Source: an uncultured Candidatus Rokubacteria bacterium (lineage in GTDB: Bacteria > Methylomirabilota > Methylomirabilia > Rokubacteriales > DASRDR01). Taken from it: 64,000 bases of DNA. Of the stretch, positions 6,354-46,894 are shown one piece after another. The stretch lies in the NCBI GenBank assembly GCA_963826115.1, contig CAWGVS010000012.1, forward strand, positions 768,001 to 832,000, in the 5' to 3' direction. The position numbers and the translations under genes were made by a program. The stretch's first letter is position 1. Each line of letters opens with the position of its first letter. The notes under the pieces were generated by a model. The model ran no database searches. It saw nothing but the letters and a program-made list of their open reading frames with translations, and was not told where the DNA came from.

Positions 6354-6400
6354 CGCCGGGCCGCCCCGCGGGTCCCGAGCGCGCGAGCGAATGAGGAGCC

Positions 6401-6694: not shown

Positions 6695-6811
6695 CGCGGG
6701 CCCGACCAAGGCCGCCGGGAGTGATAGGATGACACGCGGCTCCGGGACCGGGCGCCCAGGGCGTCCCCCGCGAGCGCTATCCGCCAGGATCCCCTCAGGA
6801 AGGAGACACTC

Positions 6812-7327: not shown

Positions 7328-7430
7328 CCGCCCGCCCTCCGGGCCGCGCCCGCGACCCGCGCGGGGGCGCGGCCCGGAGGCCGTTCCCCGTCCCCGGGCC
7401 TCGCCCGGGGCCACGGCCCGACCACCCCGC

Positions 7431-15760: not shown

Positions 15761-15765
15761 CGGGC

Positions 15766-17253
15766 CTAGCCGCCGCCCGGTGACTTGGCCGCGGGCGCCT
15801 TCGGCGGTGCGGTCGGCGGCGCGGCGTCGCTAGCGGCGGGCGCTGCCGCCGGAGCCGGCCCCGCCGGCGGCGCGCCGGCGGCGGGTGGCGCCCCGGCCGG
15901 CGGGGCCATCTCGGGCTTCACCTGCATCCCGGGCCGGACTTTCTGGAGGCCCTCGACGATCACGCGCTCCCCGCCCTCCAGCCCGCGCGTCACGATGATG
16001 AGGTCCCCGATGCGCTCGTTCAGGGTCACGCTCCGGAGCGCGACCTTGTCGCCCTGGTCGACCACCAGAACGGACTTCTGCCCCTGGGTCTCCGTGATGG
16101 CGCGCTGGGGGACGAGGACGGCGTTCTGGCGCTCCTCGACGACGGCGCGCACTCGTCCGAACTGCCCCGGCCGCAGGAGCTTCTCGGGATTGGGGAACAG
16201 CGCCTCGAAGACGATCGTGCCGGTCTTGGGGTCGACGGTCCGGTCGAGCGTGGTCACCCGACCCTTGTGCGGGTGGAGCGTGCCGTCGGCCAGGACCAGC
16301 TCGAGCTGCACGGGCTCGCCGGCGGCCGAGCGGCCCGCGGCGCGCCGGGCGAACCGGAGGTAGTCCGCCTCGCTCACGGTCGTGGTGGCCTTGATCGGAT
16401 CGACGGTGGACATCGTGGCCAGCAGCGTCGGCTCACCCCGGCCGACGAGGTTGCCCTCGTCCACGTCGAGCCGCCCGATGATCCCGCTCACCGGGGCGCG
16501 GATGGTCGTGTAGGCGAGATCGAGCTCGGCCTGCGTGACGGCGGCGCGCGCCGACTCGACAGCGGCCTGCGCCTGCTGTATCCCGATCCGCTGGGAGAGC
16601 TTGGTGTCCTTGAGGGCGGCTTCCGACGCGACCACGCCCGCGCTGGCCACCTGCTCCGCCGCGAGGGCGTTGTCGAGGTCGACCTGCGGCACGGCCTTCG
16701 CCTGGGCGAGGGGCTTCAGCCGGGCGACGTCGAGCTTGGCCTTCGCGAGAGCGGCCTTGTGCTGCTCGAGTTGGGCGGCAGCCCGTTCGACCTCGACTGA
16801 CTCCTGCGCCTTGGCGAGTTCGGCCTGCGCCTTGCCGAGCTGGGCGCGCGCGCTCTGGAGCGTCGCCTCGTACTGCGTCTTCTGGATCTCGAAGAGGATC
16901 TGGCCCTCCTTGACCTCGGCGCCCTCCTTGAAGCGCACGTGCTCGAGCACGCCCTGGATGCGCGCGCGGAGCTCGACCGTCTGGACGGCGTCGGTCTGCG
17001 CCACGAACTCCGCCACGATCGGGACCGTCTTCTTGACGACCTCCGCCACGACGACCGCCGGGGGCGGCGGGGCCGGGGGCGCGGCCTCCTTCGCCTTCGT
17101 GCGGTCGCAGGTGGTGAGCGCGGGGAGGAGCGCGCCGAGGGCCAGGAGGCCCATGAAGACCACCGAGCCGTTACGGCGCGGGGGCTTGGGGCGGATCCGG
17201 CGCTTCCAGCGGGGTGGGGCTGTCGCAGTCTTCCGCACGCGTCGCTCTATCAT
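15766..17253 (-). CDS. RND periplasmic adaptor (AcrA-like)
   Basis: VELRARIQGVL, YTTIRAPVSGIIG, LLRPGQFGRV, GLQKVRPG; start uncertain (17253 or 17154). Confidence 0.9.
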   Translation of the reverse strand: MIERRVRKTATAPPRWKRRIRPKPPRRNGSVVFMGLLALGALLPALTTCDRTKAKEAAPPAPPPPAVVVAEVVKKTVPIVAEFVAQTDAVQTVELRARIQGVLEHVRFKEGAEVKEGQILFEIQKTQYEATLQSARAQLGKAQAELAKAQESVEVERAAAQLEQHKAALAKAKLDVARLKPLAQAKAVPQVDLDNALAAEQVASAGVVASEAALKDTKLSQRIGIQQAQAAVESARAAVTQAELDLAYTTIRAPVSGIIGRLDVDEGNLVGRGEPTLLATMSTVDPIKATTTVSEADYLRFARRAAGRSAAGEPVQLELVLADGTLHPHKGRVTTLDRTVDPKTGTIVFEALFPNPEKLLRPGQFGRVRAVVEERQNAVLVPQRAITETQGQKSVLVVDQGDKVALRSVTLNERIGDLIIVTRGLEGGERVIVEGLQKVRPGMQVKPEMAPPAGAPPAAGAPPAGPAPAAAPAASDAAPPTAPPKAPAAKSPGGG

Positions 17254-17680
17254 GTCGCGCTCCCGGGGGTGATCTCGCGCACCCTTGGAGTCGGTGTCAG
17301 CAGTCGTTCGCGGGCCTGGTGCCGGCGTCCGCACCGGCCCCCGCACGCAGTGCCGGCGGGGATCATCCCGGCAAGATGCATTCCATGGGCACCATATCCT
17401 GAAACCACCCGCCAATAAAGGGCACCCGGCCCGCCGCCGCCGGCGGGGGACCGGGCCGCTGCCGCCGCGGACGGCGGAGGGCCGTCGCATCCGGCGGCCG
17501 GGCGCGGGTGCTTCGTGGCATGCGGGCCCTGGGGGCCCGGGTTAGACTGCGCCCCGATGATGGCAGCCGGCGTGCGTCTGTCCGGGCGAGTGGCCGTGGG
17601 TCGAATGGCCCCGGGGCGGACCGCGGGACAATTTGTCGCCCCGCGCGCGAGGCGCGGCGCCCGTTGAGCGCGGCACCGAG

Positions 17681-24350: not shown

Positions 24351-24756
24351 CTGTTTCGGGGTTCTGATTGCGCGGGGGTTGCGGATGGTTGCGCCATCCG
24401 TATGGCTTCGACGGCGTCGAGCCCGTCGACGGCGGCCTTGCTCGCCCCCGGGACGAGCTTCCCGTAGATGTCGACGGTCACCTTGATCGAGTGGTGGCCC
24501 GTCTGCTCCTTCATCTAGGCGAGGGACTCCCCGTTCTGGATGACCCGCGCGGCGAAGGTGTGCCGGAGGTCATGGAAGCGGATGCGCCGGAGACCCGCCT
24601 TGGTGAGCAGGCGGTGGAAGACGTGGCGCTCGAAGCCGGACTTCCAGATCGGCCCGCCATCCTGGTTGCAGAAGACCCACTCCGGGACCTGGCGCCAGCC
24701 CCTGGCGAGGGCCTCCTTCTCCCGCGCCATATGCCTCGCCGGGCCGAGGACCCTCA

Positions 24757-24785
24757 TTGACTATGTGAGTACGTGGTCATATACT
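24757..24785 (+). promoter_or_regulatory. sigma70 promoter with an overlapping candidate ArsR operator
   Basis: TTGACT-17 bp-TATACT; imperfect palindrome TGACTATGT-GAGT-ACGTGGTCA covers the -35 and spacer; AGGAGG RBS follows. Confidence 0.75.
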
Positions 24786-24803
24786 ATCGGTAGGAGGATT
24801 TCA

Positions 24804-26114
24804 ATGATGACGACCGCGACCGGCACGAGGTTCCTCGTCCTGGACACGTTCCGCGCTGAGCGGGATGGCTGCCTGGCCTACCTCGTCGTGGACGAGGCGA
24901 GCCGCACCGCTCTGGCGATTGACCCGCGCCTGGATCAGGTCGACGAGATCCTCGGGACCCTGGCGACCCGCGAGGTCCGCCTGACCCATGTGCTCGATAC
25001 CCACACGCATGCCGACCACCTCTCGGGGGTGCGCCGCCTCGCCCAGCGGACCGGCGCCACCGTGCTCGCGCACACGGCCTCGAAGCTCAAGCAGCCGGCG
25101 CGGCGCATCACTGGCGGCGCGACCTTCGAGCTCGGCACGACGACGGTGACCATCTTGGACGCCCCGGGCCACACGCCCGACTCCCTCGCCATCCTCGTGG
25201 ACGGCCACCTGTTCACGGGCGACGCCCTCTTCGCCGGCGGCGCCGGCCGGACCGACTTCATGGGCGGGAGCGCCTCGGATCTCTTCGATACGCTTCGGGG
25301 CTTCGAGGCCCTCCCGGACGACACGGTGGTCCACCCCGGCCACGACTACGTCGGCCGTCCGGTGACCACGATCGGCGACGAGAAGACCGGGAATCCCCTC
25401 CTGCGCGAGCACGACCGCGGGGCCTTCGTGGCTCGCCTCTCCGGCAGGGCGGTGCCGCCGGCCAACATGGCCGCGATCCTCCGGCACAACCTCGGCGAGG
25501 TTGAGACGCCCACCATCGCGCCCCGGGAGCTGCACGCGCTTCGCGCGCAGACGTCGGAGCCGTCTGGGCCAGTGGTCCTCGACGTGCGAAGCGCGCTGGA
25601 GTTCGAGGGCGAACGGATCGAGGGCGCGCGTCTCCTTCCGCTGGATGAACTCGAAGGCCGACTCGACGAGATACCGGAGCAGGCCGAGGTCATCGTGGTG
25701 TGCCGCACGGGCGTGCGCGCGACGATCGCGGCCGAGGTGTTGGCTCGGGCGGGGCGCCGACCGCGCGTGCTCGAGGGGGGCATGATGGCCTGGCGTCGGG
25801 CCCGGCTCCCCGTGCGTGAGGGCCCGAAGCGCCTTCCCGTCGATCGCCAGGTGCAGCTGATCGCCGGGGGCATGGTACTCACCGGCCTCGCCCTCGGGAC
25901 GCTCGTCAATCCCTGGTTCCTGGGCATCTCGGCGTTCTTCGGTGCTGGGCTGACGTTCGCCGGGGCGACCGGTACCTGCGGCCTGGCGCTCCTCCTGCTG
26001 AGGATGCCGTGGAATCGGCCGCGGCCGGTCCCATCCGCCGGACCCGCGGCGGTCTGCGCCACGGGTGGCGGGACGACCGCCCCCTGTGCGGCGCCGACCG
26101 ATCCAAGGATCTGA
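24804..26114 (+). CDS. Persulfide dioxygenase (ETHE1-like MBL fold)-rhodanese-DUF2892 fusion
   Basis: HTHADH, GHT, GRTDF, PGHDY; rhodanese loop CRTGVR; YgaP-like C-terminal TM (RQVQLIAG...GTCGLALLLLRMPWN). Confidence 0.9.
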   Translation: MMTTATGTRFLVLDTFRAERDGCLAYLVVDEASRTALAIDPRLDQVDEILGTLATREVRLTHVLDTHTHADHLSGVRRLAQRTGATVLAHTASKLKQPARRITGGATFELGTTTVTILDAPGHTPDSLAILVDGHLFTGDALFAGGAGRTDFMGGSASDLFDTLRGFEALPDDTVVHPGHDYVGRPVTTIGDEKTGNPLLREHDRGAFVARLSGRAVPPANMAAILRHNLGEVETPTIAPRELHALRAQTSEPSGPVVLDVRSALEFEGERIEGARLLPLDELEGRLDEIPEQAEVIVVCRTGVRATIAAEVLARAGRRPRVLEGGMMAWRRARLPVREGPKRLPVDRQVQLIAGGMVLTGLALGTLVNPWFLGISAFFGAGLTFAGATGTCGLALLLLRMPWNRPRPVPSAGPAAVCATGGGTTAPCAAPTDPRI

Positions 26115-28143: not shown

Positions 28144-28409
28144 CGGGTCGACTCCTCGCGTGAGTGCGGTGTGACGATGGAAGCCGGGCCGGCACGTCGG
28201 CCGGCCCGCGCCCCGGCGGCGCGGTCTCGGACGATCTCCTCGCTCATCGGCCCAGCTTAGCCGATCGGTGACGCCGCGCCGCGGCCGGCGCCCATTGACG
28301 GCGGCGGGCGGCGATGGTCTGCTCCCTGCCGGGCCGGCCGGCGGCGGCCCGGGCGCGGGCGCTCATCTCGGCGGCCCACGCCCGACCCCTCGCGCGAGGA
28401 GAGATCGGC

Positions 28410-28847
28410 ATGACCCGCACCCTCGGCTGGCTCCTCATCGGCGGCGGCGTGTTCGCCGTGCTCTTTCCCCTCGTCTCGTGGATGCGCGCGCGCGCGAGCC
28501 GCAGCTGGCCCGGCGTCAGCGGGCGTATCATCGAGTCCACCCTGGACGTGGAGCCCCGGGCCGGCAAGAGCGACAGCTACATGCCGCGCATCCGGTACGA
28601 GTACGCGGTGAAGGGTGAGACCTACGAGAGCAGCCAGCTGAACTTCTGGGGCTCGATGGGAGGCAGCCGGGCGGTTGCCGAGCGGACGACGGCGCGCTAC
28701 CCCGCGGGCGCCACGGTGACCGTCTACTACAACCCCGAGAGCCCGTCCGAGGCCGTCCTCGATCGGGCCTTCTCGCCCCTCGTCCTGGTCCTGCCTCCGA
28801 TCGGCGTCGTGCTGGCCGGGTTCGGTTACACCCTGCTCCAGCGATAA
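28410..28847 (+). CDS. DUF3592-type membrane protein
   Basis: TM, SWPGVSGRIIES, YEYAVKGETY, YPAGATVTVYYNPESPSEAVL, TM. Confidence 0.8.
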   Translation: MTRTLGWLLIGGGVFAVLFPLVSWMRARASRSWPGVSGRIIESTLDVEPRAGKSDSYMPRIRYEYAVKGETYESSQLNFWGSMGGSRAVAERTTARYPAGATVTVYYNPESPSEAVLDRAFSPLVLVLPPIGVVLAGFGYTLLQR

Positions 28848-28923: not shown

Positions 28924-28952
28924 TTGACCCCCTCCGGCCCTTTCGCTAGGCT
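28924..28952 (+). promoter_or_regulatory. sigma70 promoter of the PqqD-kinase-GT operon
   Basis: TTGACC-17 bp-TAGGCT; GGGAG RBS before ATG 28997. Confidence 0.6.
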
Positions 28953-28996
28953 CGGGCCGGTTCGACGAGCGCGCGCGTCGCCCACGGGAGCCGCCC

Positions 28997-29437
28997 ATGC
29001 CGCGATACACGATCAAGAGCCCGCAGGTCATTCACGAGACCGTCGACGCCGAGGCCGTGATCGTGAACCTCGAGACCGGCAACTACTACATGCTGAAGGA
29101 GACCGGCGAGCGCATCTGGGCGGCCCTCGCGCGCGGCGCGTCGGTCCGCAACATCGTCGACGAGCTGGGCGGGGCCGCGGACGGCACCGACGGTGTGCTG
29201 GAGGCCACGGTATCGGCCTTCCTCGGCGAGCTCCTCGAAGAGGGGCTGATCGTACCCGCGCCCGAGGCGGCGGACGCGCCGCGCGCCGCGGGCGCGCCAG
29301 CGGGGGCGGGCCGGGGCACCCCGGTTCCGCCGCCCGTCCTCCAGAAGTTCCAGGACATGAAGGAGCTCATCCTCCTGGACCCCGTGCACGAGGTCCACGA
29401 GGACCTCGGCTGGCCTCATCCGAGGCCCGCGGGCTGA
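28997..29437 (+). CDS. PqqD-family / RiPP recognition element protein with a C-terminal leader-like extension
   Basis: ETVDAEAVIVNLETGNYYMLKETGERIWAAL...FLGELLEEGLI (RRE pattern), Ala/Gly/Pro linker, then PPVLQKFQDMKELILLDPVHEVHEDLGWP. Confidence 0.88.
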   Translation: MPRYTIKSPQVIHETVDAEAVIVNLETGNYYMLKETGERIWAALARGASVRNIVDELGGAADGTDGVLEATVSAFLGELLEEGLIVPAPEAADAPRAAGAPAGAGRGTPVPPPVLQKFQDMKELILLDPVHEVHEDLGWPHPRPAG

Positions 29438-29441
29438 CCGC

Positions 29442-30512
29442 GTGAGCGCGGCGCCCCCCCTGGCCGGCGCCGCCGCGCGCGCGTGCGCGGTCGAGATGGA
29501 GGCGGCCTTCGAGGCCGCCGCGATCGCGGCGGGCGGGGTGGTCCTGCGCCACTACCTGATCGCCGGCCTGTCGGTGACGCTCCGCTTCGCGGGGCCCGCG
29601 CTGGTCGACCGGCTCACGGCGGCGCTCGAGCATCACCCGCGCGGGCGGCCCGGCGCGCCCGGGCTCACGGTCTCGCTCTGGGACACGGCGTCCACCGGCG
29701 TGCCGCCGCCGCGATTTCCCGCCGACGCCATCGACGGCGGGACGAGCGCCGCCGCGCGGTCGGGGGCGGCGCCCACCGTGCGGCTCAAGTACCGGGCGGA
29801 GCAGCGGAGCCTCTCCGTCCTCGACCGGGCCACCGACCGCGCGGTCTTCGGCGCCGCCGCCGCCGCCGGCCTCCCCTACTGGGAGACCGGCACGCCGCTG
29901 CGCGTGATCCTCCACTGGTGGATGGCCGACCACGGCCGGCAGCTCGTGCACGCGGCGGCGGTCGGCACCGCGGACCGGGGGCTCCTGCTGGTGGGCCGGG
30001 CCGGGTCGGGCAAGTCGTCCACCGCGCTCGCCTGTCTCGGCTCCCGGCTCCGCTACGCGGGCGACGACTACTGTCTCGTGAGCGTCGATCCCGACCCGCG
30101 CGCGCACAGCCTCTACGGCTCGGCCAAGCTTCACGCGGACCAGGCGCGGCGGTTCCCGGGGCTCGCGCCGGCGCTCGTCAACGCCGACCGGCTCGAGACG
30201 GAGAAGGCCCTCTACATGGTGCGTCGAGCCTTTCCGGACCACCTCCAGCCGAGCGTCCGGGTGAGCGCCCTCGTGTTGCCCGTCCTCGCCGCGGACGGCC
30301 GCACATGGCTCGAGCCCGCGTCGGCCGGCGCGGCCCTCCTGGCCGTCGCGCCGAGCACGATCCTCCAGCTTCCCGGCGCCGGGCGCGCGGCGTTCGACAC
30401 GATGTCGGGGCTCGTGCGGCAGGTGCCGTGCTACCGCCTCCATCTCGGCGGCGACCTCGCGGTCCTGCCGCGGCTGCTAGAGGGCGTCCTGGCCGAGCCG
30501 GACGCCGCCTGA
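29442..30512 (+). CDS. HPr-kinase-related P-loop kinase
   Basis: LVHAAAV, Walker A GRAGSGKSST, YAGDDYCLV (HprK/PEPCK-type DD motif). Confidence 0.85.
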   Translation: MSAAPPLAGAAARACAVEMEAAFEAAAIAAGGVVLRHYLIAGLSVTLRFAGPALVDRLTAALEHHPRGRPGAPGLTVSLWDTASTGVPPPRFPADAIDGGTSAAARSGAAPTVRLKYRAEQRSLSVLDRATDRAVFGAAAAAGLPYWETGTPLRVILHWWMADHGRQLVHAAAVGTADRGLLLVGRAGSGKSSTALACLGSRLRYAGDDYCLVSVDPDPRAHSLYGSAKLHADQARRFPGLAPALVNADRLETEKALYMVRRAFPDHLQPSVRVSALVLPVLAADGRTWLEPASAGAALLAVAPSTILQLPGAGRAAFDTMSGLVRQVPCYRLHLGGDLAVLPRLLEGVLAEPDAA

Positions 30513-30515
30513 CCG

Positions 30516-31943
30516 ATGCCCCCCGCGCGGGTCAGCGTGATCATCCCCGTCTTCAACGCCGCGCGTTTCCTCGTCGAGGCGCTCGACAGCATCTGGGTCC
30601 AGCGCTACCCGGCGCTGGAGGTCCTCGTCGTCGACGACGGATCCACCGACGGGAGCGCCGCCCTCGTCTCGGCGCACCTCGCGCGGCAGCCCGCGCTGCG
30701 CTTCCTCAGGCTTCCCGGGAACGCCGGGCCCGCCGCGGCCCGCAACGTGGGGCTCGCGATGGCCCGGGGCGACCTCCTCACCTTTCTCGACGCCGACGAC
30801 CGGATGGCGCCGGAGCGGCTCGCGTTCCAGGCGGCCTACCTCGGGGCGCACGGCGACGTCGACGTGGTCGTGGGAACCGAGGCGATCGAGCTTGCGCCGG
30901 GCGTCCGGCCGCCCGTGTGGCTCGGGCTCCGCCGCGGGGCGCGGCCCCGCTACTACCAGATGTCGATGATGGCGCGCCGCGCCGCCTTCGAGCGGGTCGG
31001 GCCGTTCGACGAGTCGTTCCGCATGGGCTCGGACCACGAGTGGATGTGCCGGGCGGCGACCGCCGGCGTCCGGACGGCGCTCGTCGACCGCGTCCTCCTG
31101 GTGCGCCGGCTCCACGGCGGGAACCTCACGTACCGGATCGACGAGATGCGCCAGGCGATGGAGCGCGTGCTCCTGAAGTCGGCGCGCGACCGGATCCGGG
31201 GACGCGCGTCCCACGGGAGCCGGGCGGTTGTCTCGGTCGTCGTGCCGTTCCACGCCGCGGCCCGCTATCTCGGCGAGGCCGTGGCGAGCGTTCTCGCGCA
31301 GACCTACCGGCGCTGGGAGATCCTGCTCGTGGACGACGCGTCGGCCGACGGCAGCGCGGCCGTCGCGGCGGGGCTTGCCCGGACACACCCGGAAGTCCGT
31401 CTCCTGCGCCTTCCGGAGAACCGGGGCCCTGCGGCCGCCCGCAACCATGGCCTCGCGGCCGCGCGGGGCGAGCTGATCACCTTCCTCGACGCGGACGACG
31501 CGATGCTGCCCGACCGCCTGGCCACGCAGGTCGGGTATCTTGCGGCGCACGCGGACACGGACCTCGTCCTGGGCGCCGAGGAGCTGACGGTCGAGCCGGA
31601 CGCCCCGGCGGCGACCCGGCCCCGTCAGGCGGCCCGCGGGCCGGGCCCGCGGTATCACGTCATGTCGATGATGGTGCGGCGCGACGCGCTCCGGCGGGTG
31701 GGCGGGTTCGACCCGTCCTACCGCGTGGCGGAGGACCTCGACTGGCTGTTTCGCGCCGCGGCGGCCGGTCTCGTCGTCGGGATGCTCGACCGCGTCCTGA
31801 CGCGTCACCGGTGGCACCAGGCCAACCTCTCGTACCGGATTCCGGAGATCGAGGCGGGGATCCTCCGGTCCCTGCGGCAACGGCTCCGCGAGCGGCAGGC
31901 GGATGGGCTCCCCGCTGGTCAGCGTCGTCATCCCGTTCGCTAA
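30516..31943 (+). CDS. Tandem two-domain GT2 glycosyltransferase
   Basis: Two copies of SV(I/V)(I/V)P, VDDxSxDGS, GPAAARNxG, FLDADD, GxFD, HxxNL. Confidence 0.9.
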   Translation: MPPARVSVIIPVFNAARFLVEALDSIWVQRYPALEVLVVDDGSTDGSAALVSAHLARQPALRFLRLPGNAGPAAARNVGLAMARGDLLTFLDADDRMAPERLAFQAAYLGAHGDVDVVVGTEAIELAPGVRPPVWLGLRRGARPRYYQMSMMARRAAFERVGPFDESFRMGSDHEWMCRAATAGVRTALVDRVLLVRRLHGGNLTYRIDEMRQAMERVLLKSARDRIRGRASHGSRAVVSVVVPFHAAARYLGEAVASVLAQTYRRWEILLVDDASADGSAAVAAGLARTHPEVRLLRLPENRGPAAARNHGLAAARGELITFLDADDAMLPDRLATQVGYLAAHADTDLVLGAEELTVEPDAPAATRPRQAARGPGPRYHVMSMMVRRDALRRVGGFDPSYRVAEDLDWLFRAAAAGLVVGMLDRVLTRHRWHQANLSYRIPEIEAGILRSLRQRLRERQADGLPAGQRRHPVR

Positions 31944-32586
31944 CCACGAGCGGCACCTGGACGCCGCCGCGCGCGGCGTCCTCGGGCAGACGTACGCGCC
32001 GGTCGAGCTGATCCTGGTCGACGACGGGTCCACCGACGGGAGCGCCGCGCTCGCCCGGGCCTACGTTCCGCCGGCGCGCTACGTGCGGCGCGCCAACGGC
32101 GGGGCCGGCGCTGCCCGCAACACCGGGGTCGCGCGCGCGACGGGTGCATTCCTCGCGTTCTGCGACGTCGACGACGTGTGGCGCCCGACGAAGCTCGAGC
32201 GCCAGATGGCCGCCGTGCGGGGGGATCCGACGCTCGACGTGGCCTTCACGGGCGTCACGGAGGTCTGGACATCGGACGAGGCCGGCCCGCGCCCGGCGCC
32301 GCGGCAGAACGTCCCCGGGGCGCTCCCCTCGGCGATGCTGGTCCGGCGGGTGGCCTTCGAGCGCGTCGGCCCGTTTGCCGAGGGGCTCCGGGTCGGCGAG
32401 TGGGCAGAGTGGTACACGCGGATGCGTGCGGCCGGACTCCGGGAGGCCTGGCTGCCGGAGGTACTGGTCGTCCGGGGTCTCCACGCCCGCAACCACAGCG
32501 CGCTCCAGGCCGCGGCGCGGCTCGAGTACTGCGAGATCCTCCGCGCGCACATCCACCGCCAGCAGGCGCGAGGCGCGGGCGCGTGA
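31903..32586 (+). CDS. GT2 glycosyltransferase
   Basis: VSVVIPF, VDDGSTDGS, GAGAARNTG, FCDVDD. Confidence 0.9.
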   Translation: MGSPLVSVVIPFANHERHLDAAARGVLGQTYAPVELILVDDGSTDGSAALARAYVPPARYVRRANGGAGAARNTGVARATGAFLAFCDVDDVWRPTKLERQMAAVRGDPTLDVAFTGVTEVWTSDEAGPRPAPRQNVPGALPSAMLVRRVAFERVGPFAEGLRVGEWAEWYTRMRAAGLREAWLPEVLVVRGLHARNHSALQAAARLEYCEILRAHIHRQQARGAGA

Positions 32587-33335
32587 GCGACGGCCTCGTG
32601 TCCGTCGTCATCCCGTTCTACAACCCAGGCGTCTATCTGGCCGAGGCGGTCGCGAGCGTCCTTGGCCAGGCCTATCGGCCCCTCGAGGTCCTCCTGGTCG
32701 ACGACGAGTCGACGGACGGCTCGGCCGACGTGGCGGCGCGCCTCGCCGGGTCCGCGGCGCCGGTGCGGCTCCTCCGCCTCGCCACGAACCAGGGGCCGGC
32801 GGCCGCGCGCAACGCGGGACTCCGGGCGTCGCGGGGCGACTTCGTGACGTTCCTCGATGCCGACGACCTCATGGTCGCGGACCGTCTCGTCGTCCAGACC
32901 GCTCATCTCCGGGCCCACCCGACGGTCGATGCGGTCGTCGGCCTGGCGGACAACGTCCTCGAGCCCGGGGTCGTCCCGCCGGTCTGGCTCCGCTGGGTCG
33001 GCACCGGGGCCCACCCCGGCTACGCGTACGCGATGTCGGTGCTCACCCATCGCCGCGTCTTCGACCGGGTCGGTCTCTTCGACCCCGCGCTCCGCGTCGG
33101 CGAGGACACGGACTGGATGCTCCGCGCGCGGGCGGCCGGTGTCCGCATCGCCCGGATCGACCGGGTGCTGCTCCGTCGCCGGATCCACGGGGCCAACCTC
33201 TCGTACCGGACGGAGGAGATGCGCGCGGCGGCCCACCGGAGCGTCCTCCGCCTGGCGCGGCAGCGCATCACCCAGCGGGCGGGCGCGAGGGACGCGCCGC
33301 GCCGCCCGGCTCCCGCGGACGAAGCTCTTCCATGA
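32583..33335 (+). CDS. GT2 glycosyltransferase
   Basis: VSVVIPFYN, VDDESTDGS, GPAAARNAG, FLDADD, GEDTDW; GTGA overlap with the previous gene. Confidence 0.9.
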   Translation: MSDGLVSVVIPFYNPGVYLAEAVASVLGQAYRPLEVLLVDDESTDGSADVAARLAGSAAPVRLLRLATNQGPAAARNAGLRASRGDFVTFLDADDLMVADRLVVQTAHLRAHPTVDAVVGLADNVLEPGVVPPVWLRWVGTGAHPGYAYAMSVLTHRRVFDRVGLFDPALRVGEDTDWMLRARAAGVRIARIDRVLLRRRIHGANLSYRTEEMRAAAHRSVLRLARQRITQRAGARDAPRRPAPADEALP

Positions 33336-33519: not shown

Positions 33520-34759
33520 GTGGGCGTCGCCGAGCGCTCGACCGTCCGAGCCCGTCTGGATCGCGCCCGCGGGCGTCGTCCGGGTCGCGTGCTCGTCCCG
33601 CTCGCCGTCTTGCTCCTCGTGTCGCCGGCCGCCGCGGCCGTGATCCGTCTCACCAGCGGCGGCGTGATCGAGGCGCAAGCGTGGCGCGAGGTGGGGGACG
33701 AGCTCGAGGTCGCCCTCGAGGGCGGGACCCTGCGCGTCCCGAAGGTGGACGTCCTGCGGATCGAGGGCCCCCCGCCGCGCCCCGCCGCCCCGCCGGTGCC
33801 CCCGCCGTCCGCGCGACCGATTCCCCCGCCCGTCGCGAAGGCCGCGCCGCTGGCGCCGAGCCCGACCTCGCCGCCGACGGCTGCCGCCGGTCCTCCCGAT
33901 CGCGGCTGTGCCCCGCCCGGTCTCCGTCACGCTCCCGGCCCCGCCGGCGGCGCACTCGATCCCCGCGTCGGTCGCGAAGGGCACGCCGAGCGCGCCGAGC
34001 CCGACCCCGTCGCTCCGGCCGGCGCCCGCAGCGCCGCCCCCGCCGGCCGCCGTCGCGCTCCCGGCTCCGCCGCCGGCCGCGCCCCCGATCCCGGAGGCCG
34101 TCGCGAAGACCGCGCCGAGTGCCCCGGCATCCCCACGGCCGACTCCCGCCCCGGTGCCGCCCGCCGCGTCGATCGCGGCGGCGCCCCTCACACCCCGACC
34201 CCCGACGGTGGTGGCGGATGGCCGCCCGGTGGACCAGTGGCGGCGCGACCTCGTGTCGCCGGCGGTCGAGGTCCGGCGCCGGGCCGCGAGCGCGCTCGCG
34301 CAGCTCGCCGAGAGCGACGCCGACACCGTCGTTCCCCTGCTGACCCCGGCGCTCAAGGACGGCGACGCGCAGGTGCGGGTCGCGGCGGCGCTGGCGTTGG
34401 GGCCGCGCGGGCGGGAGCCACAGGCCGTCACGGCGGTGCTCGTCTCGACCCTGGGCGCGACCGACGTCGCGCGGCGCCGGACGGGCAGCCAGGTCCTCGT
34501 GATGATGGGGCCGGCGGCGAAGGACGCGGCGCCGGCGCTGCTCCTCGCGTTCGCGAGCGACCCGGACGCGACGGTCCGCCAGAATGCCGCGACGGCGCTC
34601 CGCCAGATCGGCCCCGCGGCCGAGGAGGTCGTCCCGGGCCTGACGAGCGCGCTCCGGCACAAGGACCCCGCGGTGCGTCGCGCCGCGGCGACGCTGCTCG
34701 GCGACCTCGGGAGCGCCGAGTCGGCGATCCCGAAAGGCGCGCCCGCGCCGCGCCCCTAG
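33520..34759 (+). CDS. Exported Pro-rich-linker HEAT-repeat protein, frameshifted near 33890
   Basis: GGAGG RBS, signal-like LAVLLLVSPAAAA and a small beta domain; the Pro/Ala linker switches frame into ORF 33908-34759 with repeated VR..AA.AL HEAT units. Confidence 0.7.
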
Positions 34760-34834
34760 CCAGTCGCCCGCGTCGCGGCGGCCGGCGCCGAATTCCTGTC
34801 GGGCGCGCCGGAGGCGGTGGGAGACTGGAGGCCG

Positions 34835-35215
34835 ATGCTCCGGACCCGCATCCTCCGCCCGCGCTGGCTCAGCGTGGCCCTCGTGGTGTGGGCCGCCGCG
34901 TGGTGCGCCCTCCCCGCGCCGGCCGACGGGGCGCCGCTTCCGCCGACCCGGGCGCCGGCCGCCGAGGGGGCGCCGGCGGACGTCGAGCTCCAGGTCCTCC
35001 GGACGGCCCTGGTCGGCCAGGGCCTCACCCCCGCGGACGCCGACCTCGTCATGGCACGCCTCACGCCCGCGGAGCGCGCGGAGCTCGCCCAGCGCGCCGG
35101 CGAGGCGGCCGTGGGGGGGGACCCCGCCCTCCTCCTCATCATCGGCATCATTCTGGTGGTGGCGATCCTCCTCTATCTCCCCATGGCGGGCCGCATGCAG
35201 GGGTGGTGGCAGTAG
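34835..35215 (+). CDS. PA2779-family-like exported membrane-anchored protein
   Basis: Signal peptide, GLTPADA...ARLTPAERAELA...AVGGD followed by a TM segment. Confidence 0.7.
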   Translation: MLRTRILRPRWLSVALVVWAAAWCALPAPADGAPLPPTRAPAAEGAPADVELQVLRTALVGQGLTPADADLVMARLTPAERAELAQRAGEAAVGGDPALLLIIGIILVVAILLYLPMAGRMQGWWQ

Positions 35216-35262: not shown

Positions 35263-35291
35263 TTGACAGCCCTCCCGGTGGGGCATAGAGT
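35263..35291 (+). promoter_or_regulatory. sigma70 promoter of the CBS gene
   Basis: TTGACA-17 bp-TAGAGT. Confidence 0.6.
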
Positions 35292-37387: not shown

Positions 37388-37858
37388 GTGACCGCGGAGA
37401 CGGCGATCGCGCGCCTGCGGGAGACCCTCGGGGTCGAGGCCACGGGCGAGGATCCCAAGCGCCCCCTCGACCTCCGGCACCTCGTCGCCACCGTGCCCGT
37501 CGAGCGCTGGGTCGAGGCCCTCACGTTCGCGCGGGACGGGCTCGGGTGCCGCTACTTCTGCCATCTCACTGCGGTCGACTGGAAGGCGGAGGGGTTCGAG
37601 GTGGTGTGCCGCGTGGAGAACCTCGAGACGCACCTGGGGTTGACCCTCAAGACCCGGGTCGGCCGCGAGGCGCCGTGCCCGAGCCTCACCGGCCTCTTCC
37701 GGGGCGCGCTCTGGATGGAACGCGAGTGCCACGAGCTGTTCGGGATCCGCTTCGAGGGGCACCCCGACCTCCGGCGGCTCCTGCTCCCGGAGGACTGGGA
37801 AGGCTATCCCCTCCGCAAGGACTACGCGGTCGACACGCCGCATCCCCCATACCGATGA
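37388..37858 (+). CDS. nuoC: Complex I subunit C
   Basis: [41 protein letters not shown]. Confidence 0.95.
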
Positions 37859-37877: not shown

Positions 37878-38516
37878 ATGATCCACGAGCTCCGCCGCTA
37901 CCAGGTCAAGCCGGGTAAGCTCGCCACCTACGTCGAGCAGTCCGGCTCGATCGGCCGGCCCATCCGGGGCGACCGCTACGGGAAGCTCCTCGGCTACTGG
38001 TCGACGGAGCTCGGGCCCCTCAACCAGGTCGTCCACCTGTGGGAGTACCCGGACCTCGCGGCGCGGGCGACCGCGCGCGCCGGGCTCGCGAAGGACGAGC
38101 GCTGGGTCAAGGAGTACCTGCCGGTGAGCGGTCCGCTCCTCGAGGCCCAGGAGAACATGATCCTGACGCCCTTCGACTGGGCGCCCTTCCGGCCGACCAC
38201 CGGGATGGGGCTCCACGAGCTGCGCGTCTACCGCCTCCACCCGGGGAAGCTCGCCGCCTACGGCGAGGCGATGCGGGAGGCGCTGCCGATCCGGGAGAAG
38301 CACTCCGCGCCCGTCGCGTACTGGCTCGTCGAGATCGGCTCCCTCAACACGGTCGTCCACCTCTGGGGCTACCGGGACCTCGCCCACCGCGCCGAGGTGC
38401 GCAAGGGGCTCGCTGCCGACGCCGCGTGGCAGACGGCCGTCGGCCGCCTGATGCCGCTCCTCCAGGCCCAGGAGGCGACGATCCTGGTCCCCACGAGCTA
38501 CTCCCCCTGCCGGTAG
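37878..38516 (+). CDS. Tandem NIPSNAP-domain protein
   Basis: Two repeats of HELRxY..PGK...G.LNxVVHLWxYxDLAxRA; GGAGG RBS. Confidence 0.92.
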   Translation: MIHELRRYQVKPGKLATYVEQSGSIGRPIRGDRYGKLLGYWSTELGPLNQVVHLWEYPDLAARATARAGLAKDERWVKEYLPVSGPLLEAQENMILTPFDWAPFRPTTGMGLHELRVYRLHPGKLAAYGEAMREALPIREKHSAPVAYWLVEIGSLNTVVHLWGYRDLAHRAEVRKGLAADAAWQTAVGRLMPLLQAQEATILVPTSYSPCR

Positions 38517-38541: not shown

Positions 38542-39702
38542 ATGACCGCGCCCGCCCGGACCGTCGTCGAGTACGGCTACGGCGGCAACGAGCGCCTCGT
38601 GATGAACATGGGGCCGCAGCACCCGTCCGCCCACGGCGTCTTCCGCATGATCCTCACGCTCGAGGGCGAGACGATCGTCGACGTCGACCCGGTGATCGGC
38701 TACCTCCACCGGTGCCACGAGAAGCTCGGCGAGTCCTTGACCTACGTCCAGTACCCGTCGATCGCCTCGAAGACCGACTACGTGTCGGCGATGACCGCGG
38801 AGCTCTGCTACGTGCGCGCGGCGGAGCAGCTCGGCCAGATCGAGGTGCCGGCGCGCGCCCAGCACCTCCGGGTGCTGGTGGCGGAGCTCCAGCGGGTGGC
38901 GTCGCACTGCCTCTGGCTCGGGACCTGGTGCATGGACATGGGGGGCGCCCTCGGCGGCGGGGCCACCATGTTCCTCTACTGCTTCCGCGAGCGGGAGATG
39001 ATCCTGGACCTGTTCGAGGCGCTCACGGGCGCGCGCCTCCTCTACGGGTTCCACCAGGTCGGCGGGATCCGGTACGACATCCCCGCCGGGTGGGCGGGCA
39101 AGGTCCGCGAGACGCTCGCCCACATCGAGGGGCGGCTCCACGAGTACGAGGCGCTCCTCGAGGGAAACACGATCTTCCTGGTCCGCACGCAGGGCGTGGG
39201 CGTGATCTCCCCCGCGCTCGCCCAGGAGGTCGGGGTGTCGGGCCCGCTCCTCCGGGGCTCCGGCTTCGCCCACGACCTCCGGCGGGTGGAGCCCTACGCC
39301 GCGTACGAGGCGTTCGCCTTCGACATCCCCGTCGAGACCGCCGGCGACTGCTTCGCGCGCTACCGCGTCCGGATGCAGGAGTTCCGGCAGGCGATCCGGA
39401 TCGTCCGCCAGGCGCTGGACGGCTTGCCCGAGGGTCCGATCTCGTCGCGCCCCGGCGTGAAGTCGATCGGCCAGGTGAAGCTCCCGAAGGGCGAGGCGTA
39501 CGCGCGCGTCGAGAGCCCGCGGGGCGAGGTCGGCATCTACCTGGTGTCGGACGGGTCGACGAAGCCCTACCGGATGAAGTGGCGCGGCGCCTCGTTCTCG
39601 AACCTCGCGGTGGCCGGCCACATCCTCCCGGGCCACAAGATCGCCGACGCCGTCGCGATCCTGGGCTCGATCGACCCGGTCTTCGGCGAGGTCGACCGCT
39701 AG
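38542..39702 (+). CDS. nuoD: Complex I subunit D
   Basis: NMGPQHPSAHGV, IGYLHR, VESPRGE, GSIDPVFGEVDR; no NiFe CxxC pairs. Confidence 0.95.
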   Translation: MTAPARTVVEYGYGGNERLVMNMGPQHPSAHGVFRMILTLEGETIVDVDPVIGYLHRCHEKLGESLTYVQYPSIASKTDYVSAMTAELCYVRAAEQLGQIEVPARAQHLRVLVAELQRVASHCLWLGTWCMDMGGALGGGATMFLYCFREREMILDLFEALTGARLLYGFHQVGGIRYDIPAGWAGKVRETLAHIEGRLHEYEALLEGNTIFLVRTQGVGVISPALAQEVGVSGPLLRGSGFAHDLRRVEPYAAYEAFAFDIPVETAGDCFARYRVRMQEFRQAIRIVRQALDGLPEGPISSRPGVKSIGQVKLPKGEAYARVESPRGEVGIYLVSDGSTKPYRMKWRGASFSNLAVAGHILPGHKIADAVAILGSIDPVFGEVDR

Positions 39703-43953: not shown

Positions 43954-45494
43954 CCGGCTTCCCCGTCCTCTCGGTCATCACGGCGACGCCGTTCGTGGCC
44001 GCCTGCCTCATCATGCTGCTCGGCCGGACCCGCCCGCTCGGCGTCCGGCTGATCGCCGTCGGCGCGGGGGCGCTGACGCTGGCGCTGTCGCTCTACCTCT
44101 ACTGCGAGTACGACACGGCGGCGGGCGGCTTCCAGTTCCGCGAGCAGTACCCGCTCGTGCGGGCCCTCGGCATCTCCGTCGAGCTCGGCGCCGACGGGAT
44201 CTCGGTGCTGATGGTCCTCCTGACCGGGATCATCATCTTCGCCGGCGCCTTCGCGTCGTGGACCGTGCGGGTCCGCGGCCAGGAGTTCTACGCGCTCCTG
44301 CTGCTCCTGGTGACCGGGGTGTTCGGGGTCTTCGTCTCGCTCGACCTCTTCGTGTTCTTCCTCTTCTACGAGATCGCGGTGCTGCCGATGTACCTCCTCA
44401 TCGGCATCTGGGGCTCGACGGGCGAGGTCCGCCCCCAGGGCATCTTCGCGTGGGCCTTCCGCGAGACGGGTGTGGGCACCAAGGAATACGCGGCGATGAA
44501 GCTGACCCTCTACCTCCTCCTGGGGTCGGCCTTCATCCTGGTCGGGCTGTTCGTCCTCTATTTCGCCGCGGGCGTCCAGTCGTTCTCGCTGCTCGCGCTC
44601 TCCGAGGTGACGTTCTCGCCGGCGATCCAGCGCTGGGTGTTCCTCGCCCTCTACGTGGGGTTCGGCATCCTCGCCGGCATCTGGCCGCTCCACACCTGGT
44701 CGCCCGACGGCCACGCCTCGGCCCCGACCGCGGTCTCGATGCTCCACGCCGGCGTCCTCATGAAGCTCGGGGCCTTCGGCGTCATCCGGGTGGCGATGAC
44801 CCTCCTGCCCGAGGCGACGCAGTACTGGGCGCCGCTCGTCGGGACGATCGCGGTGATCAACGTCGTCTACGGCGCCTTCTCGGCGATGGCCCAGACGGAT
44901 CTCAAGTACGTCATCGCCTACTCCTCGGTGTCCCACATGGGGCTCGTGATGCTGGGTGCGGCGACCCTGACCGAGGCCGGGGTCAACGGCGCGGTGTTCC
45001 AGATGTTCGCCCACGGCATCATGACGGGCCTCTTCTTCGCGCTGGTCGGCCTCATCTACGAGAAGTCGCACACGCGCGAGATCGAGCGGATGGGCGGCTT
45101 CGGCCGGCGGATGCCCGGGGTCGCGGCGGGCTTCACGCTGGGCGCGCTCTCGTCCCTCGGGCTCCCCGGGCTCGCGGGGTTCGTCGCCGAGATCCTGACC
45201 TTCCTCGGCGCCTGGCAGTCGGCCGCCCGGTGGTGGCTCTTCCCCGCCGTCCTCGGCACGCTCCTGACCGCGATCTACGTGCTCCGCGCGGCGAAGCGGA
45301 TCTTCTGGGGGCCGCTCGCCGAGGGGCCGCACGGCGAGTGGGCGAGCCTCCCCGACGCCCGGGGCACCGAGTGGGTGAGCCTCGTGTTCCTCTCGGGCGT
45401 CCTCATCCTCTTCGGCCTGATCCCGGGGCTCGCGCTCTCGCTGATCGATCCGGCGGTCGTGAGCCTGCTCGACCGCATCGGGGTCCTGCCGTGA
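43950..45494 (+). CDS. nuoM: Complex I subunit M
   Basis: PLHTWSPDGH, MKLG, IAYSSVSHMG, GLPGLAGFVAE; ATGA overlap with nuoL. Confidence 0.95.
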   Translation: MTGFPVLSVITATPFVAACLIMLLGRTRPLGVRLIAVGAGALTLALSLYLYCEYDTAAGGFQFREQYPLVRALGISVELGADGISVLMVLLTGIIIFAGAFASWTVRVRGQEFYALLLLLVTGVFGVFVSLDLFVFFLFYEIAVLPMYLLIGIWGSTGEVRPQGIFAWAFRETGVGTKEYAAMKLTLYLLLGSAFILVGLFVLYFAAGVQSFSLLALSEVTFSPAIQRWVFLALYVGFGILAGIWPLHTWSPDGHASAPTAVSMLHAGVLMKLGAFGVIRVAMTLLPEATQYWAPLVGTIAVINVVYGAFSAMAQTDLKYVIAYSSVSHMGLVMLGAATLTEAGVNGAVFQMFAHGIMTGLFFALVGLIYEKSHTREIERMGGFGRRMPGVAAGFTLGALSSLGLPGLAGFVAEILTFLGAWQSAARWWLFPAVLGTLLTAIYVLRAAKRIFWGPLAEGPHGEWASLPDARGTEWVSLVFLSGVLILFGLIPGLALSLIDPAVVSLLDRIGVLP

Positions 45495-46894
45495 TGCTGC
45501 TCACGCTCGAGCTGGGCGTCGCGGGACTCGCCCTCGTCGTCTTCGCGCTGGGCCTCGGCGGGGGCGCCCGCCGCGCGCGCGAGATCGGCCTGGTGACCGC
45601 GGTCGGGCTCGCCGGGCTCGTCGGCCTCTCGCTGGTGATCGACGCCCGGGGCCCCCTGTTCGACGGCGCCTTCGTGGTCGATGGCCTCGCGGTGTTCCTG
45701 AAGCAGGTCTTCCTCCTGGCGACCCTCCTCGCGGTCGTCGGCGGCCTCGCGCGCCCGGACCGGGCCGGCCGGGCCCTCGAGTACCACCTGCTCGTGCTGA
45801 CCGCGCTCCTCGGGATGATGGTCCTCGCCTCGGCGCGGGAGCTGGTGCTGCTCTTCGTGGCCTTCGAGCTGATGTCGATCCCGCTCTACGTCCTCGCGGC
45901 CTTCGCCAAGCGGGACGCGCGCGCGGTCGAGGCGTCGCTCAAGTTCTTTCTGGTGGGGGGCCTCTCGACCGCGCTCCTCGCCTACGGGCTCTCCTTCGTC
46001 TACGGCATCGCCGGGAGCACGCGCCTCGACGCCGTCACGCGCGCGGCGGCGGGCGGCGATCCCCTGCTGATGCTCGGGCTGCTCCTGGTCCTCGGCGGGG
46101 TGGGCTTCAAGATCGCCGCGTTCCCGTTCCACATGTGGGCCCCGGACACCTACGAGGCGGCGGAGACCCCGTTCGTCGCGTGGCTGTCCGTGGCGCCGAA
46201 GGCCGCAGGGTTCGCCGTCCTCCTGCGGGTCTTCGTCGAGCATGCCGGCCCGCCGGCCGCCCTCTGGGCGGGCGTGGCGGGGGTCCTCGGCGGCCTCACG
46301 ATCGTCGCCGGGAACCTGATGGCGATCCCCCAGACCGACGCCAAGCGCCTCCTCGCCTACTCCGGCATCGCGCACATCGGCTACATGCTGCTCGGCGTGG
46401 CGGCGCTCTCCGCGCACGGCGTGGCGGTGCTGCTCTTCTACCTGGTCGCCTACCTCTTCTCGAACATGGGCGCCTTCATGGTCGTGGAGGCGGTGGCGGC
46501 GAGCGAGGGCACCTCGGCCCTCCGCGCGTTCCGCGGGCTCGCCCAGCGCTCGCCGGTGCTGGCGCTCGCCATGCTCCTCTTCCTGCTGTCGCTCGGCGGG
46601 ATCCCGTTCGTGGTGGGGTTCTGGGCGAAGCTCTACGTCTTCTGGGCGGCGGCGCAGGCGGGGCTCTACGGGCTCGTGCTCCTCGCCGCGATCCTGACGG
46701 TGGTGGCGCTCTTCTACTACTTGCTGGTCGCGAAGCAGATGTACATCGACGCGCCGGCCCGCGCGACGCCGGTGCCCGTCCCGCCGGCGCTCGCCCTCGT
46801 GCTCCTGGTCAGCGCTGCCGCGATCGTGCTGCTCGGGCTCTACCCCGGCCCGCTCCTCGACACCGCGCTCCGCGCCGCGACCCCGCTCTTCTAG
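45494..46894 (+). CDS. nuoN: Complex I subunit N
   Basis: EASLKFF, GFKIAAFPFHMWAPDTYE, KRLLAYSGIAHIGY. Confidence 0.95.
   Translation: MLLTLELGVAGLALVVFALGLGGGARRAREIGLVTAVGLAGLVGLSLVIDARGPLFDGAFVVDGLAVFLKQVFLLATLLAVVGGLARPDRAGRALEYHLLVLTALLGMMVLASARELVLLFVAFELMSIPLYVLAAFAKRDARAVEASLKFFLVGGLSTALLAYGLSFVYGIAGSTRLDAVTRAAAGGDPLLMLGLLLVLGGVGFKIAAFPFHMWAPDTYEAAETPFVAWLSVAPKAAGFAVLLRVFVEHAGPPAALWAGVAGVLGGLTIVAGNLMAIPQTDAKRLLAYSGIAHIGYMLLGVAALSAHGVAVLLFYLVAYLFSNMGAFMVVEAVAASEGTSALRAFRGLAQRSPVLALAMLLFLLSLGGIPFVVGFWAKLYVFWAAAQAGLYGLVLLAAILTVVALFYYLLVAKQMYIDAPARATPVPVPPALALVLLVSAAAIVLLGLYPGPLLDTALRAATPLF

Follow-up and report, generated by a model that had tools for sequence, protein, structure and literature searches.

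A widespread cassette of an RRE protein, an HprK-like kinase and family 2 glycosyltransferases that lacks lasso-forming enzymes

Five coupled genes for an RRE protein, a kinase and four glycosyltransferase domains

Here we describe an operon in a 64,000-nucleotide (nt) stretch of DNA from an uncultured Candidatus Rokubacteria bacterium (GCA_963826115.1, contig CAWGVS010000012.1, positions 768,001 to 832,000 of the forward strand), the whole of which we call the window. The operon encodes a protein with a PqqD-like RiPP recognition element (RRE; RiPP, a ribosomally made, post-translationally modified peptide), an HprK-like kinase and three family 2 glycosyltransferases (GT2s). Because the window is approximately 73% G+C, reading frames were chosen by the G+C content of third codon positions (GC3), and this frame analysis together with Pfam searches revealed five translationally coupled + strand genes at 28997-33335. 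These genes, and the features on their 5′ side, are as follows.

28314-28847: DUF3592 gene adjoining the cassette on its 5′ side, with a 149-nt gap to the RRE gene
28924-28952, + strand: promoter-like TTGACC-17 nt-TAGGCT, read from the sequence; a candidate with a weak −10 element
28997-29437, + strand: PqqD/RRE protein with tail, 146 amino acids (aa); PF05402, E=1e-13, 51.8 bits against a cutoff of 23.4
29442-30512, + strand: HprK-like P-loop kinase (ScmC/HprK-type), 356 aa; PF07475, E=0.0018
30516-31943, + strand: tandem GT2, 475 aa, two domains with FLDADD in both; PF00535 in two stretches, E=5e-68
31903-32586, + strand: GT2, 227 aa, FCDVDD; PF00535, E=3e-28
32583-33335, + strand: GT2, 250 aa, FLDADD, GTG start at 32583; PF00535, E=7.5e-31

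Successive genes are separated by a 4-nt gap, a 3-nt gap, a 41-nt overlap and a GTGA overlap, in that order. All five are intact, with GC3 values of 0.91-0.96, as are the catalytic motifs of the kinase and of all four GT2 domains, among which FLDADD occurs three times and FCDVDD once. A preliminary description of this DNA, made from the letters alone, had proposed one promoter followed by five abutting or overlapping genes for an RRE protein, an HPr-like kinase and three GT2 genes with four domains; the junction positions agree with this arrangement, and Pfam and the frame analysis agree with the gene identities. The promoter stands less firmly: TTGACC-17-TAGGCT is present at 28924-28952, but its −10 hexamer matches at 3/6 positions and a consensus scan did not call it, the only promoter-like site of that scan being 35263-35291, before a CBS gene. 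A GGGAG Shine-Dalgarno sequence lies ahead of the first ATG, that of the RRE gene.

The same description had seen no cyclase, B2 peptidase, radical SAM enzyme, pqq gene, nucleotidyltransferase, flippase or separate precursor open reading frame (ORF) at the locus, and scans of the window uphold these absences. No start-to-stop ORF fits the 149-nt region upstream of the RRE gene. Across the 64-kb window, no ORF of at least 300 aa carries SGGxDS, which we take to be the PP-loop signature of Asn-synthetase-type lasso cyclases, and neither tblastn nor a family hidden Markov model (HMM) detected the nucleotidyltransferase family NTP_transf_5. Radical SAM, pqq, flippase and transglutaminase families were found in none of the 54 window ORFs scanned by Pfam, and the window holds no cassette-type ATP-binding cassette (ABC) genes, its sole ABC match being an unrelated ATPase at 63.4-64.0 kb. 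The flanks are housekeeping genes of a diderm bacterium, comprising two resistance-nodulation-division (RND) efflux operons, OmpA, a nuo operon and gap-pgk-tpi.

The cassette recurs across bacterial phyla

The kinase has 264 homologues at E<=0.001, mostly metagenomic and some named 'serine kinase', and its closest relatives, 62-88% identical, are metagenomic. Using a profile of 28 kinase homologues, we collected 80 loci from species-representative genomes at 30-48% identity, a sample from which it follows that at least 80 such loci exist. They include Cyanobacteria, Chloroflexota, Acidobacteriota, Actinomycetota, Planctomycetota, Verrucomicrobiota, Chlamydiae, Bacteroidota, Proteobacteria and others. 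HMMs made from the window and locus proteins were then compared with six-frame translations of the loci; RRE relatives were counted over the 71 loci with at least 1 kb upstream of the kinase, and GT2, NTP_transf_5 and ABC genes over the 50 loci with at least 5 kb on both sides. Of the 71 assessable loci, 68 have a relative of the RRE protein no more than 4.2 kb from the kinase, and in 57 of the 71 it is directly upstream on the same strand. All 50 loci have a GT2 within 5 kb (1-5 domains, mostly 2-3), 45 of the 50 have NTP_transf_5 (PF14907) within 8 kb and 21 of the 50 have an ABC ATPase within the same distance. Pfam searches of example loci agree with the identities assigned in the census; half-size ABC exporters were seen there, as was a Wzm/Wzt-type pair with a Wzt_C domain in one locus, L004. 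Because the arrangement recurs across phyla, it is far beyond chance.

Cassette genes also occur as fusions. The RRE is joined to the kinase in 2 of the 80 loci (L041, L064), and the kinase to a GT2 in loci L002 and L033 and in homologues P0060 and P0095. Homologues P0098, P0127 and P0128 join the kinase to an NAD-dependent epimerase, and a GT2-RRE fusion is found in L023. In a tree of 134 GT2 domains, two conserved types can be told apart; members of one are mostly the first GT2 after the kinase and members of the other mostly the last. The window has both. Three of its domains (both tandem domains and the 250-aa GT2) are recent paralogues of the 'first' type, monophyletic with a support of 0.978, and the 227-aa GT2, of the 'last' type, falls in a 44-leaf clade of mostly second-or-later GT2s.

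The PP-loop cyclase signature (SGGxDS in ORFs of at least 300 aa) is absent from all 80 listed loci. A Pfam census of genes neighbouring the cassette covered 440 of 475 genes in three batches, leaving out ten proteins of at least 818 aa and the last 25 genes (L052-L055); Asn_synthase and transglutaminase are absent from the 25 commonest families per batch of these 440 genes, where rare single occurrences are possible. The commonest families are GT1/GT4 (8-11 members per batch), NAD-dependent epimerase/dehydratase, sulfotransferase, methyltransferase and SDR, with Polysacc_synt flippase, Wzy_C, GtrA and ABC2_membrane (ABC-2 permeases) also frequent. The preliminary description had suggested looking in other genomes for RRE, kinase and GT2 genes that co-occur without lasso B2 and C genes, and the RRE and GT2 counts and the missing cyclase signature bear this co-occurrence out. 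Its statement that there is no nucleotidyltransferase is true of the window but peculiar to this copy, as most relatives carry NTP_transf_5. The operon is one copy of a widespread, uncharacterised cassette, and the window copy is a reduced one, without NTP_transf_5 and exporter.

Some loci have further features of their own. Radical SAM/SPASM genes lie a few kb from the cassette in four of them, L011 (4760-5761), L033, L040 and L047, the L011 member being the one scanned with Pfam and NCBIfam. Five related loci from actinobacterial metagenome-assembled genomes (MAGs), L057, L059, L063, L069 and L075, have a sortase gene just upstream of the RRE gene and, in the vicinity, a Wzz/P-loop protein, a Wzy_C protein and two-component regulators. 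Two MAG labels look wrong: L016, titled Klebsiella pneumoniae, is 71% G+C, and L071, titled Akkermansia muciniphila, is 66% G+C.

The RRE protein carries a leader-like motif and a conserved tail

In an alignment of 62 relatives of the 146-aa protein, the RRE domain is followed by a variable linker of low complexity and then by a C-terminal tail that is strongly conserved. Within the window copy we distinguish the following parts.

28997-29260, + strand: RRE winged-helix domain, residues 1-88; AlphaFold2 (AF2) secondary structure, predicted local distance difference test (pLDDT) 86-97
29324-29341, + strand: leader-like (F/Y)xxPxL, residues 110-115, VPPPVL here; column counts in the 62 relatives
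29348-29416, + strand: conserved tail (Y/F)xDMxxLLLLDPxHE...GWP, residues 118-140; column counts in the 62 relatives

The PF05402 match, which lies above the gathering score, covers residues 19-85, and E19, G28 and Y30 are conserved in 60-62 of the 62 sequences. In a Foldseek search, the best Protein Data Bank match of the protein was the lasso B1 protein TbiB1 with its leader (5v1v, E=1.2e-5, target template modelling (TM) score 0.88), and a second lasso B1 protein with leader, TfuB1, was also matched (6jx3, E=1.3e-3). The lasso leader motif YxxPxL, at positions -17 to -12, is recognised by the B1 RRE, according to PMC6784204 and PMC10368454, and the (F/Y)xxPxL of the tail is, judged by its sequence, a match to that motif. 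Position 110 is Phe in 39 and Tyr in 16 of the 62 relatives, P113 is kept in 56 and L115 in 44. In the AF2 model (pLDDT 84) the linker has low confidence, residues 113-118 form a confident beta-strand and confidence falls again towards the end; via this predicted strand the RRE may bind its own leader-like motif in cis.

Conservation is highest further along the tail, where D128, P129, H131 and P140 are found in 62/62 sequences, D120 and G138 in 61/62 and W139 in 60/62; position 118 is aromatic in 61/62 and positions 124-127 are hydrophobic. DPxH follows the motif Leu at a spacing of 13 residues in 47 of 48 sequences. The window copy keeps P113, L115, D128, P129, H131, G138, W139 and P140, and has V110 where most relatives have F/Y and Q119 where most have T/S. 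Position 119 is Thr/Ser in 48/62, and the residues after GWP are hydroxyl-free in 27/61. We rejected by eye a candidate link between a missing hydroxyl at position 119 and a missing NTP_transf_5, as L019 and L032 have Thr/Ser there and L026 has Ala.

The tail was found as part of longer proteins. Its DPxH...GWP pattern occurs once per locus in 65 of the 80 listed loci, always at least 95 residues into an ORF, and in none of the 80 does the tail form a separate small ORF. A comparison of the tail region with proteins of 30-79 aa returned two matches, both of them fragments of full-length proteins. Among 2,829 small ORFs (18-110 aa) clustered from the 80 loci and the window region we found no conserved precursor; apart from three lineage-specific groups, all that clustered were antisense artefacts of kinase and GT2 genes. 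A search for RRE proteins in longer, fused forms passed none of its 7,681 candidates, which is weak evidence, fusions being known in L041 and L064. One of the loci, L023, from a Margulisiibacteriota single-cell genome, has a different layout at 6273-7882, where a tail-less 87-aa RRE and the GT2-RRE fusion adjoin the kinase. A reading of that fusion as a GT2 joined to the tail was rejected, the actual partner being a second RRE domain, and no DPxH...GWP tail was found at this locus.

The kinase and its predicted complex with the RRE protein

The kinase matches Hpr_kinase_C (PF07475) at 18.3 bits against a cutoff of 33.3 and TIGR00679 at 16.8 against 240, and a precomputed match to PF27840 (named ScmC, Pfam 38.1) is present on the window kinase (P0009) and on many relatives. 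Its nucleotide-binding loop is the following feature.

29994-30017, + strand: Walker A/P-loop GRAGSGKS, residues 185-192; conservation and HprK/P alignment

H170, G188, G190, K191, S192, D208 and D209 are invariant in 28 kinase sequences, and the core made up of the His, the P-loop and the DD aligns gaplessly to Lactobacillus casei HprK/P (1jb1 residues 21-72). The spacing of H170, K191, S192, D208 and D209 equals that of H148, K169, S170, D186 and D187 of the lasso kinase BsfK, residues that were shown by mutation to matter (PMC10368454). The AF2 model of the kinase has a pLDDT of 92.9. Taken together, both kinase domains have ATP-dependent phosphoenolpyruvate carboxykinase (ATP-PEPCK) as their closest fold (E~1e-11, query TM ~0.55), and the structural match to HprK/P (1kkl) extends over the C-domain only (E=8.7e-7).

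Structure prediction of the RRE-kinase pair gave an interface score (ipSAE) of 0.90, the best of three controls reaching 0.00; the mark applied to this score is one that 116 of 157 solved complexes attain, as do 2 of 215 mismatched pairs, in a calibration that is only rough, with our own alignments supplied. Three runs share at least 91% of contacts, with a partner pLDDT of at least 76. In the model, the RRE beta-sheet residues 9-32, E19 and Y30 included, pack on kinase residues 294-326, a segment with the conserved LAPSTILQL, and the tail, through its residues 118-125 and 136-142, contacts the kinase at residues 82-140 and 186-187, which lie beside the P-loop. The model supports binding of the RRE protein to the kinase, and a physical coupling of the two is supported by translational coupling, the fusions in 2 of the 80 loci and a strong complex prediction.

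Comparison with known systems

The most similar known genes are those for the tailoring and export of phosphorylated and phosphoglycosylated lasso peptides, which comprise the B1 RRE, the kinases PadeK, ThcoK, BsfK and PsmK, the nucleotidyltransferases PsmN and BsfN, and the ABC transporter D. HprK-like lasso kinases act on precursors by phosphorylation, and in pseudomycoidin the nucleotidyltransferase PsmN attaches hexoses to the phosphate (PMC8498205). In the Bradymonas bsf cluster, the RRE BsfB1 greatly enhances phosphorylation of the precursor by BsfK (PMC10368454), and Butyrivibrio lasso clusters contain a nucleotidyltransferase, an HPr kinase and a GT2 together (PMC7533575). Like this set, the cassette has an RRE whose fold is nearest to the B1 protein TbiB1 and a kinase with the core spacing of BsfK, and most family members are accompanied by NTP_transf_5 and a half-size ABC exporter. 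Unlike in lasso clusters, neither a precursor nor a C cyclase was found with the cassette in the window or the 80 listed loci, a B2 peptidase was absent from the window genes scanned and from the commonest neighbour families, its leader-like motif is fused to the RRE itself, and the two GT2 types are obligatory (50/50). The window copy further differs from the lasso tailoring set in having neither N nor D genes. The NCBIfam lasso PqqD models score below their cutoffs on the window RRE, at 46.7 against 80 and 29.5 against 70.

Several other systems share single components or pairs. HPr-rel-A (TIGR04352, kinase A; TIGR04353, PqqD chaperone) has the same pairing and gives the best or near-best NCBIfam matches of the window proteins. 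The scores are far short of the cutoffs: the kinase reaches 40 bits where 200 are required and the PqqD protein 20.9 where 35 are, and relatives drawn from four further loci score 32-46 bits. From these sequence scores we regard the cassette as a distinct sister family of HPr-rel-A. The SynChlorMet cassette (ScmC/ScmD) is defined by radical SAM partners. The window kinase carries the PF27840 ScmC annotation and the RRE matches ScmD (TIGR04248) weakly, at 24 against 100, whereas the kinase has no NCBIfam ScmC match at E<=0.01 and no radical SAM gene is present among the window genes scanned. With HprK/P the cassette kinase shares the His, GxxGxGKS and DD with conserved spacing, but its N-domain differs, its two-domain fold is nearer to ATP-PEPCK and it lacks an HPr/phosphotransferase system context.

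Among glycosyltransferases, mycofactocin MftF (TIGR03965), a soluble GT2 with DxD, is the top NCBIfam match of the tandem and the last GT2, although the window GT2s score 165, 72 and 84 bits against a cutoff of 280 and no mycofactocin genes are present. The polysaccharide GT2s TuaG, EpsD and PRK10073 score about equally to MftF on the window GT2s. GT2s that act on ribosomal peptides are also known, namely glycocin S/O-glycosyltransferases such as SunS. Cassette proteins of the window and of four other loci reach no NCBIfam cutoff, and in the full-text literature, with subscription journals outside the coverage, we found the lasso precedents but no description of the conserved lasso-less cassette, of the RRE with its leader-like tail in cis or of its predicted complex with the kinase. 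The parts are of known kinds with generic Pfam and NCBI names, and the cassette, the cis tail and the predicted complex, which we did not find described, appear new.

A possible phosphorylation and glycosylation module and its alternatives

Gene content, conservation, motifs, folds and intact catalytic residues have been set out above, and the best reading of the cassette is that it is related to the lasso genes for the B1 RRE, the K kinase, the N nucleotidyltransferase and the D ABC exporter. As to its function, we tentatively favour a lasso-related module whose phosphorylation and glycosylation reactions would be directed at the RRE protein's own tail, or at a group that the tail holds, a proposal that we consider quite possible and short of probable. 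By this proposal, the 146-aa RRE protein would use its flexible linker to bind its own (F/Y)xxPxL in cis, as a lasso B1 protein binds the leader, and the exposed face of the RRE beta-sheet would dock on the LAPSTILQL helix of the kinase. Docking would put the DPxHE...GWP tail into the cleft that separates the two domains of the kinase, adjacent to the P-loop, where the kinase would phosphorylate the tail or the group held by it. GT2s of the 'first' type, triplicated here, and of the 'last' type would then add a short glycan. In most genomes the NTP_transf_5 enzyme and the ABC exporter, neither of which is in this window, would complete the pathway. Phosphorylation, glycosylation and the identity of the acceptor are inferred by analogy.

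The preliminary description had proposed phosphorylation followed by glycosylation of a ribosomal peptide, or of the RRE protein as a glycan carrier. The co-occurrence of the genes and the coupling of RRE protein and kinase are borne out, and the built-in lasso-leader-like tail speaks for the RRE protein as carrier, but the acceptor and such chemistry on the RRE protein are putative, because the tail has no invariant Ser/Thr, and has Gln in the window where most relatives have Thr or Ser. Several observations weigh against our proposal. No Ser, Thr or Tyr is invariant in the tail among the 62 sequences, so the RRE protein lacks a classical O-phosphorylation site. The pairing of strand 113-118 with the leader groove of the RRE is putative only, residues 121-146 have a pLDDT of only 60-74 in the monomer model, and residues 126-135, including D128 and H131, lie outside the confident contacts of the complex. 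The PEPCK-like whole fold of the kinase model, its closest, is a likeness to small-molecule enzymes, and one kinase relative weakly matches the phosphonate kinase FomB. Neighbours elsewhere are rich in GT4, NDP-sugar epimerases, sulfotransferases, methyltransferases, flippases, Wzy and ABC-2 permeases, and such neighbourhoods fit polysaccharide synthesis; a folded 15-kDa protein is an unlikely cargo for half-size ABC exporters, and the window copy has neither NTP_transf_5 nor exporter. As the window cassette has a housekeeping setting and no transporter, a self-contained cytoplasmic reaction fits it better than polysaccharide export.

A more far-reaching form of this proposal, which we hold to be unlikely, though by no means negligible, takes the 146-aa protein as a natural fusion in which an RRE is joined to a leader and a core of its own. 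Such a precursor or carrier would recognise itself, present its tail to the kinase and then to the GT2s and receive a phosphate-linked glycan on a non-hydroxyl residue (such as His131 or Asp128) or at the tail end; the cassette would then found a new, phylum-spanning class of lasso-derived glycoconjugates without a lasso fold.

The main alternative is that the enzymes act on a sugar, a sugar phosphate or the lipid-linked glycan of a surface polysaccharide; for example, the kinase and the nucleotidyltransferase could activate or cap a sugar and the GT2s extend the chain, with the RRE as a regulatory or scaffold subunit of the kinase and the tail as a tether or autoinhibitor. This is somewhat unlikely in our estimation and deserves serious weight. 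Polysaccharide-type families are among the commonest in the 440 neighbour genes, L004 has the Wzm/Wzt-type pair with Wzt_C, and three homologues (P0098, P0127, P0128) are kinase-epimerase fusions; the PEPCK-like kinase fold, the weak FomB match of one relative and the lack of an invariant hydroxyl residue in the tail point the same way. However, it leaves unexplained a lasso-B1-type RRE with a leader-like motif in 68 of 71 loci and the GT2-RRE fusion in L023, and the window cassette lies amid housekeeping genes without polysaccharide genes or an exporter. NTP_transf_5, moreover, is to our knowledge not the usual sugar-1-phosphate nucleotidyltransferase family.

Two further explanations concern where the substrate lies and whether this copy still works. 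The RRE-kinase pair and the GT2s could modify a separate ribosomal peptide or protein encoded elsewhere, possibly a lasso precursor, whose true leader displaces the cis tail. Relatives in lasso clusters do act on separate precursors, and the RRE enhances the kinase there; RiPP precursors are small and diverse and could escape small-ORF clustering, and radical SAM/SPASM genes lie near the cassette in four loci. The 80 listed loci, however, contain no conserved small ORF, neither they nor the window have a lasso cyclase signature, and in the maps inspected little intergenic space precedes the RRE gene. The tail, too, is under strong purifying selection with fixed spacing, which exceeds the need of an inert placeholder, and we regard modification in trans as improbable. 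Still less probable, with very little to be said for it overall, is that the window copy is a decaying remnant that has lost its nucleotidyltransferase and exporter and no longer makes the family product. NTP_transf_5 is absent from the 64-kb window and present in 45/50 loci, V110 and Q119 deviate from the F/Y and T/S of most relatives, and the gene just downstream is apparently frameshifted. Set against this, the five genes are intact with GC3 of 0.91-0.96, the catalytic motifs of the kinase and the four GT2 domains are preserved, triplication of a GT2 is a gain and not a loss, NTP_transf_5 is also absent from 5/50 loci, and kinases 62-88% identical exist in metagenomes.

Neighbouring genes in the window

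Downstream of the last GT2 gene lies one gene of uncertain relation to the operon.

33520-34759, + strand: membrane-anchored Pro-rich HEAT-repeat protein; HEAT, E=3e-22; GTG start, GGGAGGAG Shine-Dalgarno; operon membership uncertain

Its product combines a signal-anchor and a small domain with a Pro-rich region, in which IPxxVAKxxPxAPSPT units are repeated, and with HEAT repeats. Near 33850-33900 the coding frame shifts from 0 to 1, a change that points to a frameshift or to misassembly of a GC-rich repeat. HEAT families are absent from the frequent neighbour families in the other loci (440 neighbour genes). This gene is followed by a PA2779-family gene at 34817-35215.

Elsewhere in the window, two RND efflux systems, each with an AcrB-type pump and a membrane-fusion protein, lie at 31-4558 and 11189-17490, the second with an outer-membrane factor gene. 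A protein with a DndB-like (DNA-sulfur-modification-associated) domain is encoded at 5186-6313, with no other dnd genes among the ORFs scanned, and 24540-26114 encodes a 524-aa fusion of metallo-beta-lactamase/glyoxalase II-like, rhodanese and YgaP-like membrane domains. Within the nuo operon, a NIPSNAP-domain gene (37878-38516, E=7e-57) sits between the genes for the 30-kDa (37388-37858) and 49-kDa (38542-39702) subunits. The region 44001-46000, downstream of a NuoL-like gene, has an AT skew of -0.34 to -0.37; the GC3 filter finds no long ORF in it, though long ORFs exist in several frames, and it probably holds membrane subunit genes.

Implications

In the usual view an RRE is an adaptor, and the precursor peptide that it delivers to the enzymes is a separate molecule. 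In this cassette a lasso-B1-type RRE has a leader-like motif and an invariant peptide as permanent parts of its own chain, and dozens of genomes from more than 10 phyla pair it with a kinase and glycosyltransferases, without lasso enzymes. Cultured carriers of the cassette include Anabaena sp. UHCC 0187, Novosphingobium sediminis NBRC 106119, Roseobacter sp. GAI101 and Verrucomicrobium sp. BvORR106. If the RRE protein is only an adaptor, RRE/leader recognition would have been recruited to assemble glycan-synthesis enzymes. If the tail is the substrate, the cassette would represent a new route to a modified peptide or protein and a new kind of phospho-glycan linkage.

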